From positions 2,176,001 to 2,240,000 of the forward strand of contig OZ241986.1 in NCBI GenBank assembly GCA_965204375.1: a stretch of DNA of 64,000 nt. Direction: 5' to 3'. A model generated the notes under the pieces. That model was not told where the DNA came from, made no database searches, and worked only from the letters and a program-made list of their open reading frames with translations. This stretch comes from Candidatus Latescibacterota bacterium (GTDB lineage: Bacteria; Latescibacterota; UBA2968). Positions 42,027-47,848 of this stretch are shown piece by piece. The position numbers were made by a program, and so were the translations under genes. The first letter of the stretch is position 1; each line of letters begins with the position of its first letter.

Positions 42027-42065
42027 AAAAAAAAGAGCGGCAGGTTGCAAAAACCCACCGCTCTT
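42027..42065 (-). terminator. Intrinsic terminator downstream of the mini-RNAP gene
   Basis: Minus strand AAGAGCGGTGGGTT...AACCTGCCGCTCTT followed by a U-tract. Confidence 0.75.
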
Positions 42066-42170
42066 AAGAAGTAAGAAGTGAAAAGTAAGAAGTGAGAAAG
42101 CCACCCCAAACCGCCTAAAGGCGGGTGCTTCATCACACTTCACACTTCTGCCTTCACACTTCACACTTCC
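42065..42170. repeat. Inverted heptamer arrays (TAAGAAG-like x5 / CACTTCA-like x5-6) enclosing a REP-like palindrome CCGCCTAAAGGCGG
   Basis: Read directly at 42065-42099, 42111-42124 and 42128-42170; the right arm overlaps the stop of the 1029-aa gene. Confidence 0.8.
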
Positions 42171-45100
42171 ATCGGTAACCCCACAAATAACCGACTATAC
42201 TCATCTGTCAACGGATCGCGCTCGCCCTTTTGCGCTGCGCGGGCAAAGACCACACCCGGCTTTTCCGACCTGCGCGCCCGCGCCAAAACGCCATATCCAC
42301 CGGGCGCACTCTGCGTTTCCAGATCGCTCTGAATCGCCAGCATCTCCGCCAGCGCATTGGCCAAACCCCAGCGCGCACCTATCGCCCGCGCAAAAAGCTC
42401 CTCTGGCGTCAGCCCCTCTCGAAAACCGTGCTTCAGGGGCGTAAACCCACCCTGATCATTCCGCGTCACGCCCTGGGGAGCCACATAAAGTCTAACCTGC
42501 TGCCAATTGGCACGCGCACCACATTCCACCAGAAGCGCGGGAATCCCGAGATCATCGTCGTCATATCCGCGAAATCGCGCCAGCACAGCCGACACCTCAT
42601 CGGGATAATCGCGCCAGACATCTGGGTCATCGCCCTCTGGTCGATCGGGCCAATCGAGCGACGAACCGATAAACGCACTCATCGACGCTCCTGTCTTAAG
42701 CGCGGCATCAAACCCTCTATCCCACAATCGCGCTGCCAGATCCAATGCAGCCTTCGAGCCATCGCGCGCTATTGCAGCCGCCATCCAGTCCATCACCTGA
42801 TACTTATCGACAAATAACCCCTTTCGCTCAACCTCATCGCCGACAATCTCCGCAATCTCCTGCAATCCCTCATCCGTCATACTCATATACGCCAGGCCAA
42901 ACAGCGCGTCGTGCATCGGGTGTACCTTCTCGCGTGCAATCAATCCCGGATCCCGCTTCAGATGCGCCACTGCCGATAGATGCGCTTCAGCCGACCGCTG
43001 TCCCTCTTCAGTCACCGGCACAAAAATCGCCACTTGATCGCCATCAAAATCCATATTCATCATCTTGCAAATCGCCACACACACGCGAATTGCCTCACCT
43101 TCCACGCGCACCGGACGACACGCCACAAAAGCCATCGGCGAAAACGCGGGATTGCGAAGCACCACGGCCCACAATTTAGCCATAGCTGCATCCAGGGCTT
43201 CCTCCGCTTTCCTCGACCGCCTATCCACTTCTTCAGCACCCACCTCTCGTGCTGCAAACGGCCCAAACAACGTCCACGCCATTTCCTCGGGCACACCGAC
43301 CTGATCGTATCGCAATTCGGGTGCAGGCACAGCCACCGAACGCCCGCTGAACAACGCCCGCGCCTGAAATTGCAAACGCGACAACTCGCAAAATGCGCGA
43401 ACCCGCTCAGACAGCGTCTCAACCGCACGATCCACCAATATATCTGGCGCACCATTGGCAATCATCTCACTCAACCGGTTATTGGCCTCTCGCAATTCTC
43501 GGGGCACATCTCTCCCACTCACATGTGTCAATGAATACCCCGGCAGCCACGGATGCGGAACCGGACGCGCAAGCGCGACATCTCCACCGCGTTTCAACGA
43601 AAACTCGGTGCCGCGTTCATCCAGTTCAACAGCCACCCCACCTCTTGCCAAATGCCCAATTAGCTCATCAAACTGAGGAGACGGCGTAGTGGGAGCAACA
43701 GACCCCGCAACGACGCGGTCAGCCAGCGTATCGGCATCATCTCGATCTACCGCACACGTATTGAACAAATCGTCAATCACCCCAAAAGCACCCGCTTCTC
43801 GCAACGCCAAAAACTCTGTCTCGCCCAACCTTTGATCGTGTTGATCCGGCTTCACACCCATGTGAATTTTATCTGCTGCCAGATGCAACGTGCGTCCCCA
43901 ATACACCCACCCCACTGTGGTGCGACGCGGCAGCGTTTTCCCATTCACCGTCAGCGTCTCCATACCATCTTCTGCCAGTTCTAAAGCCTTCAACTGCGCC
44001 CGCATCTCATCGTCTTTGGGCGCACTGAGCACAGGAATAATAACCGGCTCTCCCTCGGCCTTTGCAATGCGCCCGGCCACAGCTTCGCGCACCTGACCAA
44101 TATTCAATCGCGACGGCAAACCACACACACTCACAATAAGTTCCACAGGCGTGCCATCCGACAATCTGGGCATATCTTCATCTCGCAAAATGCGCGACAC
44201 CACACCCTTAAAACCGTGCCGATTGCTCAGTTTATCGCCCGACGCAACGCGATTGGGCAACATCATCCGGTTCGCAGCCGATTCGCTGATCACAACTGCA
44301 TCTTCGTGTGTATCACCATTCCACGCCATAAACGCGGTCAGCAAATTGTACCCCGTCCAGAAATGCGAATCGCACGGTTCACATCCCGTCTGCACCAGCG
44401 CGGGTTCCGACTCCAGTGTTTTGCCGTCATATTGCGCGTGATACGCGTGCCACACGCCTTGCTCATCGCGCTGCATATCGGGACTCGGCGCGCCAATCCA
44501 CTGCCGCATCATATTCACGCCCATCAAAACGCGATTGGTATCATTGTGTTCCAAAAACGGGACTACCGAAGCACCTATCCCCAACCGCTTTTCAGGTGCA
44601 TCGTCTTCAATCACCAGCTTGCCATCGCGAATAGTCGCCCCTTGAGCCACCTCTAAAATCCGCGCGAGATTCGGTCCCTCAGGCGTGCAATAAGGACACA
44701 CGCGCCCATCGTGCGACGGATGATAGCAATTCTCTATTCCCTCATCGGCCTCACCGATAATTGGGATCAACGTCACCCGCCGCAAATGAACGTACATATC
44801 CTGCAAATTGGTCGCCTGCAAATACTGAGAGGTCGGTTCTTCCGTAAAAAACGTGTGAATCCAATCTCCTAACGGCATCCATGTGTCAACGGCATCTCCC
44901 AGCATCTCTGGCATATTTTCCAACCGCGCGGCAATATAATCGCGCACTTGCTCGCCCACACACCGAATATCAGCACGCGCCAAATCCACATCCGTCGGGG
45001 CTGGAACCACCGTGCGAAAAAAGCCATCTACCTTAAACCGCCCCCATTCGTCGGGCTGAGGAATATCTTTGTACACAACCTCTTGCCCCCCCTGAATCGT

Positions 45101-45250
45101 GAGATGCAATTCACAGGTATATTCATCCACTGACACCACCCGATACCCCGCCAGCGATACCCGATCCGCCAACAATTCGGGCAACCCCTTTTGCACAAAC
45201 ACATCCCACGAAATTTTATGCCACGGCGCCTTTACTGAAAGACTCATCAA
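42161..45250 (-). CDS. Miniaturised single-chain RNA polymerase beta-beta' fusion paralog (not the housekeeping rpoB/rpoC)
   Basis: Colinear beta motifs: [96 protein letters not shown]. Then beta' motifs: [57 protein letters not shown]; start 45250 or 45247. Confidence 0.93.
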
Positions 45251-45289
45251 ATTCCTCCTATTTCATTAAAGGGGAGAATAAATACAATT

Positions 45290-47119: not shown

Positions 47120-47179
47120 AAACTGGTCTGAGGATGATATACAACGGGTCGTTTCTCAGACCCGTTCAACGACCAGTTT
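47120..47179. other. Nested inverted-repeat RNA structure between the ECF sigma and ABC genes
   Basis: Outer stem AAACTGGTC (47120-47128) / GACCAGTTT (47171-47179); inner stem AACGGGTC (47143-47150) / GACCCGTT (47159-47166). Confidence 0.6.
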
Positions 47180-47772
47180 TACCCTCTCCCATACCTCCGA
47201 CCCCATGCCTCTGCGAGTTGCTTGCGCGCGTGGAACAGCCGCGATTTTACTGTCCCCTCTGGAATCGCCAGCCGTTCGGCAACCTCTCGAAGCGCCACTT
47301 CATCTTCGTACACCATCTGAAACACCTCGCGCTTTTCCTCTGGCAACGCATCGATTAACGCCTGCAAAATGCGCCGTTGTTCAGCGCGTTCCAACTGCAC
47401 ATCGGGTCCCAGTGCAGCCCGATCGATCATCCACCCCGGAACGGGTTGTTCTTCATCCTCCTCATCGTAAAGCGAAGGCATTTCCAGAGGCTGTTCGCGG
47501 CGGCGACTTTGGCTTCGCAATTGATTCAGCGACAGATTTCTCGCAATCCGAAACAGCCATCCCCGAAAAGACCCTTGCCCCGACCATTGATCGGCCCGAT
47601 TCCAAACTCTGAGAAAAACCTCCTGTGTCAAATCATCTGCTGCGACCGGATCGCGCGTCACCCAGCGCATACTCTCGGTCACCTGTGCCTGATAGCGCGC
47701 AAACAGAATCGCAAAAGCCTCTTGATCCCGCGCCACAATTCGCTGCATCAAAATCGCGTCCGATGGTGTCAA
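47179..47772 (-). CDS. ECF sigma-70 factor (regions 2 and 4 only)
   Basis: DQEAFAILFARY, ADDLTQEVFLRVW, FRGWLFRIARN and IPEGTVKSRLFHAR. TTG start at 47772 after AGGAGG. Confidence 0.93.
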   Translation of the reverse strand: MTPSDAILMQRIVARDQEAFAILFARYQAQVTESMRWVTRDPVAADDLTQEVFLRVWNRADQWSGQGSFRGWLFRIARNLSLNQLRSQSRRREQPLEMPSLYDEEDEEQPVPGWMIDRAALGPDVQLERAEQRRILQALIDALPEEKREVFQMVYEDEVALREVAERLAIPEGTVKSRLFHARKQLAEAWGRRYGRG

Positions 47773-47792
47773 AAAATATCCTCCTGTGGGAA

Positions 47793-47820
47793 TCGACACC
47801 GCCCAATGTCCGAAGGTTCA
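47793..47820 (-). promoter_or_regulatory. Putative ECF-type autoregulatory promoter TGAACC-N17-GTCGA
   Basis: AAC -35 core and GTC -10 core directly upstream of the sigma gene SD, just after a terminator. Confidence 0.55.
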
Positions 47821-47848
47821 AAAAAAAACGCAGCCCTTCAGGACTGCG
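47820..47848 (-). terminator. Intrinsic terminator separating the 47878-49747 gene pair from the sigma operon
   Basis: Minus strand CGCAGTCC-TGAA-GGGCTGCG followed by T9. Confidence 0.8.

Follow-up and report, generated by a model that had tools for sequence, protein, structure and literature searches.

Organization of the locus

The stretch of DNA analyzed here, referred to as the window, comprises 64,000 nucleotides of a Candidatus Latescibacterota bacterium (GenBank assembly GCA_965204375.1, contig OZ241986.1, positions 2,176,001 to 2,240,000) whose genome, designated G000, is a single contig of 6.34 Mb; all coordinates follow the numbering of the window. The minus strand carries a cassette that consists, in order, of an intrinsic terminator, an extracytoplasmic function (ECF)-type promoter, a gene for an ECF sigma factor, a gene for an ATP-binding cassette (ABC) exporter, a gene for a protein in which segments of the β and β′ subunits of RNA polymerase (RNAP) are fused, hereafter the mini-RNAP, and a second terminator (Table 1). 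An initial annotation, made from the sequence of the window, had proposed each of these elements, and all were recovered here with coordinates that agree within a few bases, while the gaps it gave between the sigma factor and exporter genes and between the exporter and polymerase genes (92 and 39 nt, respectively) are exact. A terminator scan of the region detected no terminator-like site in either intergenic gap. The number of such sites in the region is not raised (5 compared with 6.3 in shuffled sequence), and the two flanking terminators are distinguished by the length of their stems and their position at gene ends rather than by number. The T-run of the upstream terminator reaches into the -35 element of the cassette promoter.

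Table 1. Features of the sigma factor-polymerase cassette and of the mini-RNAP that it encodes (window coordinates)
Feature	Coordinates	Strand	Description
Upstream intrinsic terminator	47825..47852	-	12-pair stem and T-run; ends the operon of the DksA-like and 315-residue proteins
ECF-type promoter	47793..47820	-	-35 TGAACC at 47820-47815; -10 region GGTGTCGA at 47800-47793
ECF sigma factor gene	47179..47772	-	197 aa; Pfam, TIGR02937
ABC exporter gene	45290..47086	-	MsbA-like; ABC_membrane and ABC_tran
Mini-RNAP gene	42161..45250	-	1029 aa; β-derived ~1-545, β′-derived ~546-1029
β flap deletion site	44258..44275	-	aa 326-331 replace ~254 residues of the organism's own β
β-barrel active-site motif	44204..44239	-	GDK..RHG.KG type; aa 338-349
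β′ clamp helices	43391..43501	-	aa 584-620, two helices (584-598, 603-620)
Mg-binding motif	43034..43057	-	NMDFDGDQ; aa 732-739
Downstream intrinsic terminator	42033..42065	-	14-pair stem and T-run, 3′ of the mini-RNAP gene

Linkage of the sigma factor and the mini-RNAP

The initial annotation had inferred that the sigma factor and the mini-RNAP form a dedicated pair, and had named in advance the neighborhoods of mini-RNAP homologs as the place where this proposal could fail. A scan of one genome per species (185,579 species) returned 208 stretches encoding a relative, which sets an upper limit of 208, and the locus counts given throughout refer to the best 80 of these stretches, taken with their flanks. 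All open reading frames (ORFs) of the 80 loci were translated and searched with the proteins of the window, with sigma factor orthologs recovered at E values of 1e-26 to 1e-127. An ortholog of the ECF sigma factor lies upstream of the polymerase gene on the same strand in 77 of the 80 loci, directly adjacent to it in 67 and separated by a single gene in 10. Of the 67 adjacent pairs, 36 overlap, 24 of them by exactly 4 nt, an arrangement that would fit translational coupling. When the neighbors were clustered all against all, no gene besides that of the sigma factor was common to the neighborhoods across phyla.

Two of the three exceptions are accounted for. The locus L088 begins at a contig edge, and the sigma factor gene, together with the first 48 residues of the polymerase, is found at the end of a different contig from that genome. 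In the genome containing L073, a second sigma factor-plus-polymerase cassette is located on another contig, and in the L073 copy itself the conserved promoter stands directly in front of the polymerase gene, with the sigma factor gene absent there. Just upstream of that promoter is an ORF (L073:4107-4538) whose first residues read as an IS200/REP-type transposase-like start.

The phyletic pattern points in the same direction. Of the 41 nearest genomes, 24 encode the mini-RNAP (the 21 members of the genus together with G021, G024, and G036), and a sigma factor ortholog (E ≤1e-25) occurs in exactly the same 24 without exception, although these genomes are kin and not independent of one another. 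G021 encodes two copies of each protein, with each pair adjacent. Pairwise distances for the sigma factor and the polymerase are strongly correlated (Mantel r of 0.96, with 0 of 999 permutations as high; 0.28 among distant pairs), which shows co-inheritance only and not interaction. Taking together linkage, shared presence and absence, gene overlap, and promoter conservation, the predicted pairing of the two proteins is about as secure as comparative genomics allows, and the earlier inference is borne out to that extent.

The cassette promoter and its sigma factor

The initial annotation read the promoter as TGAACC (47820-47815) and GTCGA (47797-47793) separated by 17 nt. The element is present and conserved, but comparison across loci gives the consensus TGAACY-N14-GGTGTC, usually preceded by C and commonly beginning 46 nt 5′ of the start codon, so that the -10 element is better written GGTGTC than GTCGA. 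It has the GAAC-type -35 and GTC-type -10 elements of ECF autoregulatory promoters, and recognition of TGAACY/GGTGTC by the sigma factor of the cassette may be inferred. Upstream of the sigma factor gene, TGAAC and GTC separated by exactly 18 nt occur at 58 loci, and a looser pattern occurs at 65 of 75 loci. A position weight matrix of 25.5 bits was derived from 35 dereplicated sites of these loci, and in the 1.655 Mb that the 80 loci comprise it exceeds 17 bits at 73 places, all of them before a cassette and none elsewhere. Since the matrix was built from the same sites, the absence of other matches is the informative result. The motif conservation anticipated by the initial annotation is thus found in front of the cassette in 73 of the 80 loci.

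Genome-wide searches gave little sign of further targets. In the genome of the window, the cassette promoter scores 28.1 bits and the next best site 19.3, compared with a maximum of 19.9 for a reversed-matrix control; 13 sites exceed 14 bits compared with 11 for the reversed matrix, and the cassette site alone lies above the control maximum. A strict regular expression found 3 sites in this genome against a mean of 3.8 in 20 controls with shuffled half-sites. In five other genomes, complete or large, the regular expression found 31 sites against 19 in the control, including both sigma factor promoters of the two-cassette genome. Seven other sites were inspected, of which five lie antisense inside ORFs, one lies in an ORF on the same strand, and one is intergenic. 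This last site, in the Poribacteria genome of locus L100 (G041:C1:5479751-5479776), is located ~180 nt upstream of a 291-residue ORF with a lipoprotein-like start, and it may be a true second target or a chance occurrence. A wider regulon was therefore not retained, as consistent extra sites were lacking in the genome of the window and the five others when searched at fixed -35/-10 spacing, and as far as this motif can tell, the predicted regulon of the sigma factor is its own operon.

The sigma factor probably starts at TTG 47772, six bases after a ribosome binding site (AGGAGGA, 47785-47779). This start was chosen because orthologs align from there, and the longest ORF, from GTG 47799, would overlap the promoter. 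The protein matches Sigma70_r2 (1.8e-18), Sigma70_r4_2 (8.1e-15), and TIGR02937 (120.9 bits against a cutoff of 42.9), and it contains σ2 and σ4 only, with regions 3 and 1 absent, as in ECF (group 4) sigma factors. Its nearest solved relatives are structures of Escherichia coli SigE (1or7 and 6jbq, 3e-20), and SigW and SigH are also among its best solved relatives. The linkers between σ2 and σ4 of ECF sigma factors are usually variable. Here, conservation of the linker extends beyond phylum boundaries, and P112 and W114 are identical in all 35 orthologs. No paralog of the sigma factor was found in the genome of the window. The absence of an anti-sigma gene, noted initially, is upheld by Pfam, which detects no anti-sigma domain in the neighboring genes, and the polymerase is the sole conserved neighbor; likewise, the sigma factor has no additional domain beyond σ2 and σ4, consistent with the earlier description of a protein without a C-terminal extension. 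In the main text of the ECF re-classification (PMC7826278), as distinct from its supplements, no passage on a polymerase-like neighbor of an ECF sigma factor was found.

A probable single-chain polymerase of reduced size

Pfam domains occur in the mini-RNAP in the order RNA_pol_Rpb2_6 (5.8e-40), Rpb2_3, and Rpb1_2 (8.9e-16), and therefore it represents a β-to-β′ fusion. It is ~40% of the size of a normal core, and ordinary rpoB (1268 residues) and rpoC (1373 residues) genes are present ~300 kb away in the same genome. Neither Pfam nor NCBIfam contains a model dedicated to it, and it falls far below the equivalog cutoffs for the canonical subunits (175 bits against 801 for TIGR02013 and 114 against 963 for TIGR02386).

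To define the retained and missing parts, a profile of 81 family sequences was aligned to the β and β′ subunits of the organism itself. On the β side, the aligned segments correspond to residues 451-539 (the fork), 611-781, and 1036-1263 (the second half of the barrel to the C-terminus) of its own β. Residues 782-1035, which form the flap, are replaced by approximately six residues, with profile positions 301-310 covering the entire interval, and the first 450 residues are mostly cut to ~130. A sequence search of the PDB independently agrees on the flap, as 135 residues of 8i23_C are skipped. On the β′ side, residues 273-528 (clamp helices, switch region, and catalytic loop), 565-632, and 675-783 (bridge helix) are kept, and ~25 residues at the rudder, the Zn-binding N-terminus, and everything past the bridge helix (~590 residues) are lost. 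Relative to canonical RpoB and RpoC, the protein is missing the flap, the Zn region, the rudder, most of the lobes, the jaw, and a detectable trigger loop.

What remains of the catalytic center is strongly conserved. The β-side residues G338, D339, R344, and G346 are identical in 81/81 sequences, K340 is found in 76 (with R in the other 5), K348 in 78, and the ED pair is nearly as constant (E316 in 74 and D317 in 80). In the Mg-binding motif, F735, D736, G737, and D738 are invariant and D734 occurs in 79. The bridge helix aligns to β′ residues 675-783 (profile positions 863-962, 4.8e-09) and appears as a long helix (949-980) in the structural model, so that the DxDGD motif, the basic residues and ED pair of the β side, and the bridge helix that characterize a two-barrel catalytic core are all present. 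The last 65 residues are conserved in the family without significant likeness to a trigger loop, and their assignment as the first trigger helix was rejected (local alignment score to the organism's own β′ of 27 compared with a shuffled mean of 30). The AlphaFold model of the mini-RNAP is confident (predicted local distance difference test [pLDDT] of 92.4, predicted template modeling score of 0.91), and its top Foldseek matches are bacterial and plastid β chains (E of 1e-25), with viral polymerases weaker (1e-17).

The clamp helices are found by the profile from residue 273 of the organism's own β′ (2.6e-40), and several of their positions are nearly constant (N590 in 80, R592 in 73, P602 in 81, and L605 in 80 of 81 sequences). 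In bacterial holoenzymes, sigma region 2 docks principally on the clamp helices, and region 4 is anchored by the flap tip. With the former present and the latter deleted, the mini-RNAP would have retained the dock for region 2 and lost the anchor for region 4.

Distribution of the family

At E ≤1e-30, 366 proteins match the mini-RNAP among 1.84 billion cluster representatives, including ~100 full-length clusters (945-1101 residues, 35-59% identity). The best 120 matches in a collection of 5.8 billion proteins are 43-93% identical to it, and the 4 that carry a name are every one a "hypothetical protein". The closest named relatives come from metagenome-assembled genomes labeled Latescibacterota. 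By labels assigned by hand (seven phyla plus unclassified), the 80 loci belong to Latescibacterota (43), Chloroflexota (12), Poribacteria (11), Planctomycetota (4), Armatimonadota (3), Gemmatimonadota (3), and Verrucomicrobiota (1), with 3 unclassified. In a FastTree phylogeny of 47 non-redundant polymerases, phylum labels cluster, requiring 11 changes compared with 26.1 when shuffled, with some mixing between phyla. Every one of the other 20 genomes in the genus carries an intact ORF (72-93% identity).

Short relics of the mini-RNAP are present in two related genomes that do not contain the cassette, one of 55 residues at 61% identity and the other of 36 residues at 69% identity with a TAG codon (G029:C1:641364-641525 and G039:C1:3534197-3534304). 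Both are located ~1 kb downstream of a DksA-like gene, the same syntenic place that the cassette occupies in the window, and the cassette seems to have been lost through decay in these lineages.

An origin from a phage or other mobile element was considered and is unsupported by viral, plasmid, PHROGs, and PADLOC scans. The IMG/VR viral contigs contain two weak and partial matches only, and PHROGs returned generic polymerase families. Among 72,556 plasmids no family member was found; in the 12 of 13 matching records listed, coverage was only 20-25% of the query, and the annotated ones fall on rpoB. The PADLOC defense models do not match the mini-RNAP, and they match the sigma factor marginally (helix-turn-helix type, 1.2e-3) and the ABC protein as a generic ATPase.

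Transcription and predicted interaction

Contigs assembled from metatranscriptomes (four runs of three studies) cover the sigma factor, exporter, and polymerase genes. In the set X16, one contig bridges the exporter/polymerase junction and another the sigma factor/exporter junction, the latter ending at 47808 inside the promoter, although assembled contigs cannot show transcript starts or levels.

Co-folding of the sigma factor with residues 281-1029 of the polymerase gave a median interface score (ipSAE) of 0.37 (runs of 0.37, 0.34, and 0.52), compared with 0.00 for the best of three controls. The pLDDT of the partner was ≥65, and ≥19% of contacts recurred between runs. When the procedure was benchmarked, 58 of 80 solved complexes attained the pass mark, as did 2 of 110 mismatched pairs. 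However, at scores of 0.60 or below, only 7 of the 80 solved complexes pass, along with both mismatches, and passes in this range are mostly wrong except where the interaction was already probable on other grounds. The verdict of the tool was "weak support", and for physical binding between the sigma factor and the mini-RNAP the predicted complex lends weak support at this strength.

Spacer cargo and neighboring genes

The initial annotation treated the exporter as part of the system. It is instead a lineage-specific insert, present between the sigma factor and polymerase genes at 8 of the 80 loci, each of them closely related to the window (polymerases 78-93% identical), and as the two genes are directly adjacent in 67 of the 80, the exporter was rejected as a core component. 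In two loci closely related to the window (L021:8710-9900 and L023:8786-9931) an unrelated protein of 381-396 residues, which matches no Pfam, PHROG, or PADLOC family, fills the spacer instead, and the spacer is empty in the remaining loci with both genes. Record 6 of the RNA-library contigs X15 matches the sigma factor gene and diverges from the window just past its stop codon, which fits a different spacer arrangement. As the spacer may hold the exporter, another protein, or nothing, it would therefore represent a variable slot under the cassette promoter.

Upstream of the cassette on the minus strand are genes for a 343-residue protein that begins with a DksA/TraR C4 zinc finger (1.3e-08) and continues into a long, uncharacterized C-terminal part (48815-49846), and for a 315-residue protein without a family assignment (47878-48825), which overlap by 11 nt. 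The pair is widespread in the order, independent of the cassette. These proteins were rejected as parts of the system, given that the 343-residue protein is encoded in 38 of 41 genomes, including 15 of the 17 without a mini-RNAP, among which are 13/13 genomes of the genus g6. In G001, G011, G017, G019, and G021 its gene lies apart from the cassette, and in the window a terminator stands between the two.

Between the stop codon of the polymerase gene and the downstream terminator (~42089-42170) lies a long, imperfect hairpin formed by tandem (GAAGTGT)n heptamers and their complement. A 16-mer of this repeat has 236 copies in G000, often in arrays, and the spot shows very high summed depth and many loose ends in the RNA-library contigs. 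Directly downstream of the cassette (39107-41940, minus strand) are genes for a BlaI-type repressor and an 815-residue BlaR1 (M56 peptidase) fused to five TonB_C domains, a pair that is present in duplicate in some relatives. GC skew is strongly negative across the whole window (approximately -0.23 in most 2-kb windows), and long ORFs are mostly on the minus strand.

Proposed mechanism and alternative explanations

In the explanation we favor, the core unit would comprise three parts, namely a conserved ECF promoter, a dedicated ECF sigma factor, and a single-chain, catalytically active β-β′ polymerase. The sigma factor would recognize TGAACY-N14-GGTGTC before its own gene, and the cassette would thereby switch itself on along with any gene in the spacer, here the ABC exporter. 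Region 2 of the sigma factor would dock on the β′ clamp helices of the mini-RNAP, and the two proteins would form a holoenzyme that initiates at the cassette promoter without the host core. It seems somewhat better than an even chance that the mini-RNAP is an active polymerase that directly uses its own sigma factor, given the survival of the clamp helices in an otherwise stripped enzyme and the conserved linker of the sigma factor. Catalytic activity, binding of the sigma factor, and initiation by the pair are each inferred. From its conserved active site, the mini-RNAP is likely a working polymerase, and a pure mimic, one of the two alternatives that the initial annotation had envisaged, is disfavored by the catalytic residues that 74-81 of 81 sequences retain.

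Several observations weigh against a polymerase that uses its own sigma factor. The flap, which anchors region 4 in normal holoenzymes, is gone, though the promoter layout is canonical and equally fit for the host core, and alignment to β′ of the same organism detects no trigger loop in the mini-RNAP. At the start of the NxDFDGD motif, the residue that in normal polymerases contacts the sugar of the incoming nucleotide is variable; N732 (43055-43057) is kept in only 48/81 sequences, with D in 13, E in 13, and Q in 5, and as a result some family members may differ in substrate choice. Neither the regular expression nor the weight matrix for the promoter motif revealed a second promoter in the 6.34-Mb genome, which would leave an orthogonal polymerase without a visible regulon. 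One true orphan exists as well, as the complete 4.6-Mb genome of L092 encodes an intact mini-RNAP with no sigma factor ortholog and no promoter motif, its best sigma match reaching 88 bits compared with 292 in the genomes of L088 and L073. The 80 loci are also not independent, with 47 left after collapse at 88% identity. As for the interaction, the co-fold covered residues 281-1029 of the polymerase, with residues 1-280 left out for size, and a sigma factor bound to β′ is a textbook pair among solved structures, so a pass may reflect memory of these. Finally, two of the X15 contigs cross the terminators, for which DNA carry-over or read-through is a possible cause.

A further step, that this holoenzyme is an autonomous self-transcribing unit in which the pair amplifies itself and its spacer cargo from its own promoter only and without the host core, is possible but doubtful in our view. 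With the same reservation, such a unit would be the smallest sigma-dependent RNA polymerase of cellular type, consisting of two proteins of ~135 kDa in total. It could run a few genes when an antibiotic or a phage inhibitor blocks the host polymerase at parts that are lost here, and it is a matter of speculation that the exporter cargo in this genus fits a response to toxic compounds.

The main rival to a sigma-using mini-RNAP, which we consider rather unlikely, is that an ordinary ECF sigma factor acts on the host core and does nothing more than turn on the mini-RNAP, which would then work sigma-free, as YonO may, on a special template such as RNA, single-stranded DNA, or a scaffold. This division into regulator and effector would account for the canonical ECF layout and spacing of the -35 and -10 elements and for the ordinary appearance of sigma regions 2 and 4, for which SigE, SigW, and SigH are the best solved relatives, and it accommodates the missing region-4 anchor, a cassette promoter that is the only one in its genome, and the intact polymerase without a sigma factor in L092. 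It offers no explanation for the clamp helices as the sole surviving part of the clamp, for a sigma linker whose conservation spans phyla, or for the frequent 4-nt overlaps, which are seen for subunits of one complex; in addition, the weak co-fold signal exceeded all three controls.

We regard it as quite improbable that the mini-RNAP is instead a sink, a decoy core that holds the sigma factor by its clamp helices and imposes negative feedback on a self-activating sigma factor. A self-activating promoter needs a brake, no anti-sigma factor or other conserved neighbor is found in or beside the cassette, the clamp helices are retained, and the two genes would be co-expressed in fixed proportion. 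A decoy, however, needs none of the Mg aspartates, β-side lysines and arginine, or bridge helix that are conserved in 74-81 of 81 sequences, a protein of 1029 residues is a costly brake, and a loop whose sole output is its own brake would be functionless. That the fused gene is a functionless relic of an rpoBC duplication in an accidental neighborhood is scarcely credible, since the relics in two related genomes and the patchiness of the family (at most 208 relatives in 185,579 species genomes) stand against the intact ORFs of all 20 other genus members (72-93% identity), the ~100 full-length clusters (35-59% identity), an active site and linkage conserved across phyla, and a model with a pLDDT of 92.4. 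Under every one of these explanations, no target is visible beyond the cassette itself.

Implications and comparison with known systems

If the pair is a working holoenzyme, a polymerase of bacterial type can be reduced to a form with no flap, α, ω, or detectable trigger loop and still use a sigma factor, which would bear on the contacts that are truly needed for sigma-dependent initiation and on the likely appearance of early two-barrel polymerases. It would also mean that a second transcription machine operates in members of several phyla (Latescibacterota, Poribacteria, Chloroflexota, Planctomycetota, and others) that are represented here by metagenome-assembled genomes only. For synthetic biology, it would offer a compact, two-gene, promoter-specific system of bacterial type, perhaps one orthogonal to the host, for which the promoter is known and approximately a hundred natural variants exist. 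Even under the rival explanations, the cassette provides a new means of controlling, or of being controlled by, an ECF sigma factor without an anti-sigma factor.

Compared with ECF holoenzymes of known structure (SigE, SigH, and SigL; 6jbq, 5zx2, and 6dv9), the barrels, bridge helix, fork, and clamp helices of the mini-RNAP are recognizably bacterial, and its partner is a true group 4 sigma factor with a -35/-10 promoter. It differs in being one chain of 1029 residues rather than β plus β′ (1268 and 1373 residues), in having no α or ω gene linked to the cassette, and in existing beside a normal core. Full-length β-β′ fusions (NCBIfam PRK09603 and PRK14844; ~2,850-2,890 residues) share the β-then-β′ order, and the mini-RNAP scores 168 bits with these models. 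Those fusions, however, are complete and provide the only core subunits of the cell, whereas the mini-RNAP is a third of their length, an extra copy, and far below their cutoffs (5372 bits).

Reduced polymerases are also known from plasmids and phages. The K2ORF6p/K2ORF7p enzyme of the yeast cytoplasmic linear plasmids, or virus-like elements, is described as a β-β′ fusion of ~1000 residues from which many accessory regions have been removed; it is reported to be without the clamp coiled-coil, lid, and rudder and to rely, in place of a sigma factor, on an additional small subunit along with a capping enzyme (PMC2919709, PMC6211774). In contrast, the mini-RNAP family retains the coiled-coil, is tied to a sigma factor, and is chromosomal and bacterial. 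YonO of the Bacillus prophage SPbeta is likewise a single-chain, two-barrel enzyme that exists beside that of the host, and its description, as far as it bears on this comparison, is of an efficient DNA-dependent RNA polymerase without trigger-loop homology (PMC5467207), which provides a precedent for efficient activity in a two-barrel polymerase of this kind. The same source presents YonO as phage-borne, with few catalytic residues in common with multisubunit enzymes and no known specificity factor (PMC5467207), and this description sets it apart, as the mini-RNAP aligns with β and β′ over hundreds of residues. The non-virion polymerases of the jumbo phages phiKZ and AR9 have reduced β and β′ subunits, are without α and ω, and use a dedicated specificity subunit, as outlined in the relevant part of PMC7824862. 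Theirs consist of four to five phage-encoded polypeptides with no gene of the sigma-70 family, whereas here one chain is accompanied by an ECF sigma factor. The combination of a single chain, a chromosomal home in bacteria, and a bona fide partner of the sigma-70 family is found in none of the compared analogues. A literature search, the scope of which ended short of the ECF re-classification supplements, returned no description of a sigma-linked fused β-β′ protein, and the sigma factor and mini-RNAP together look like an undescribed minimal transcription module.

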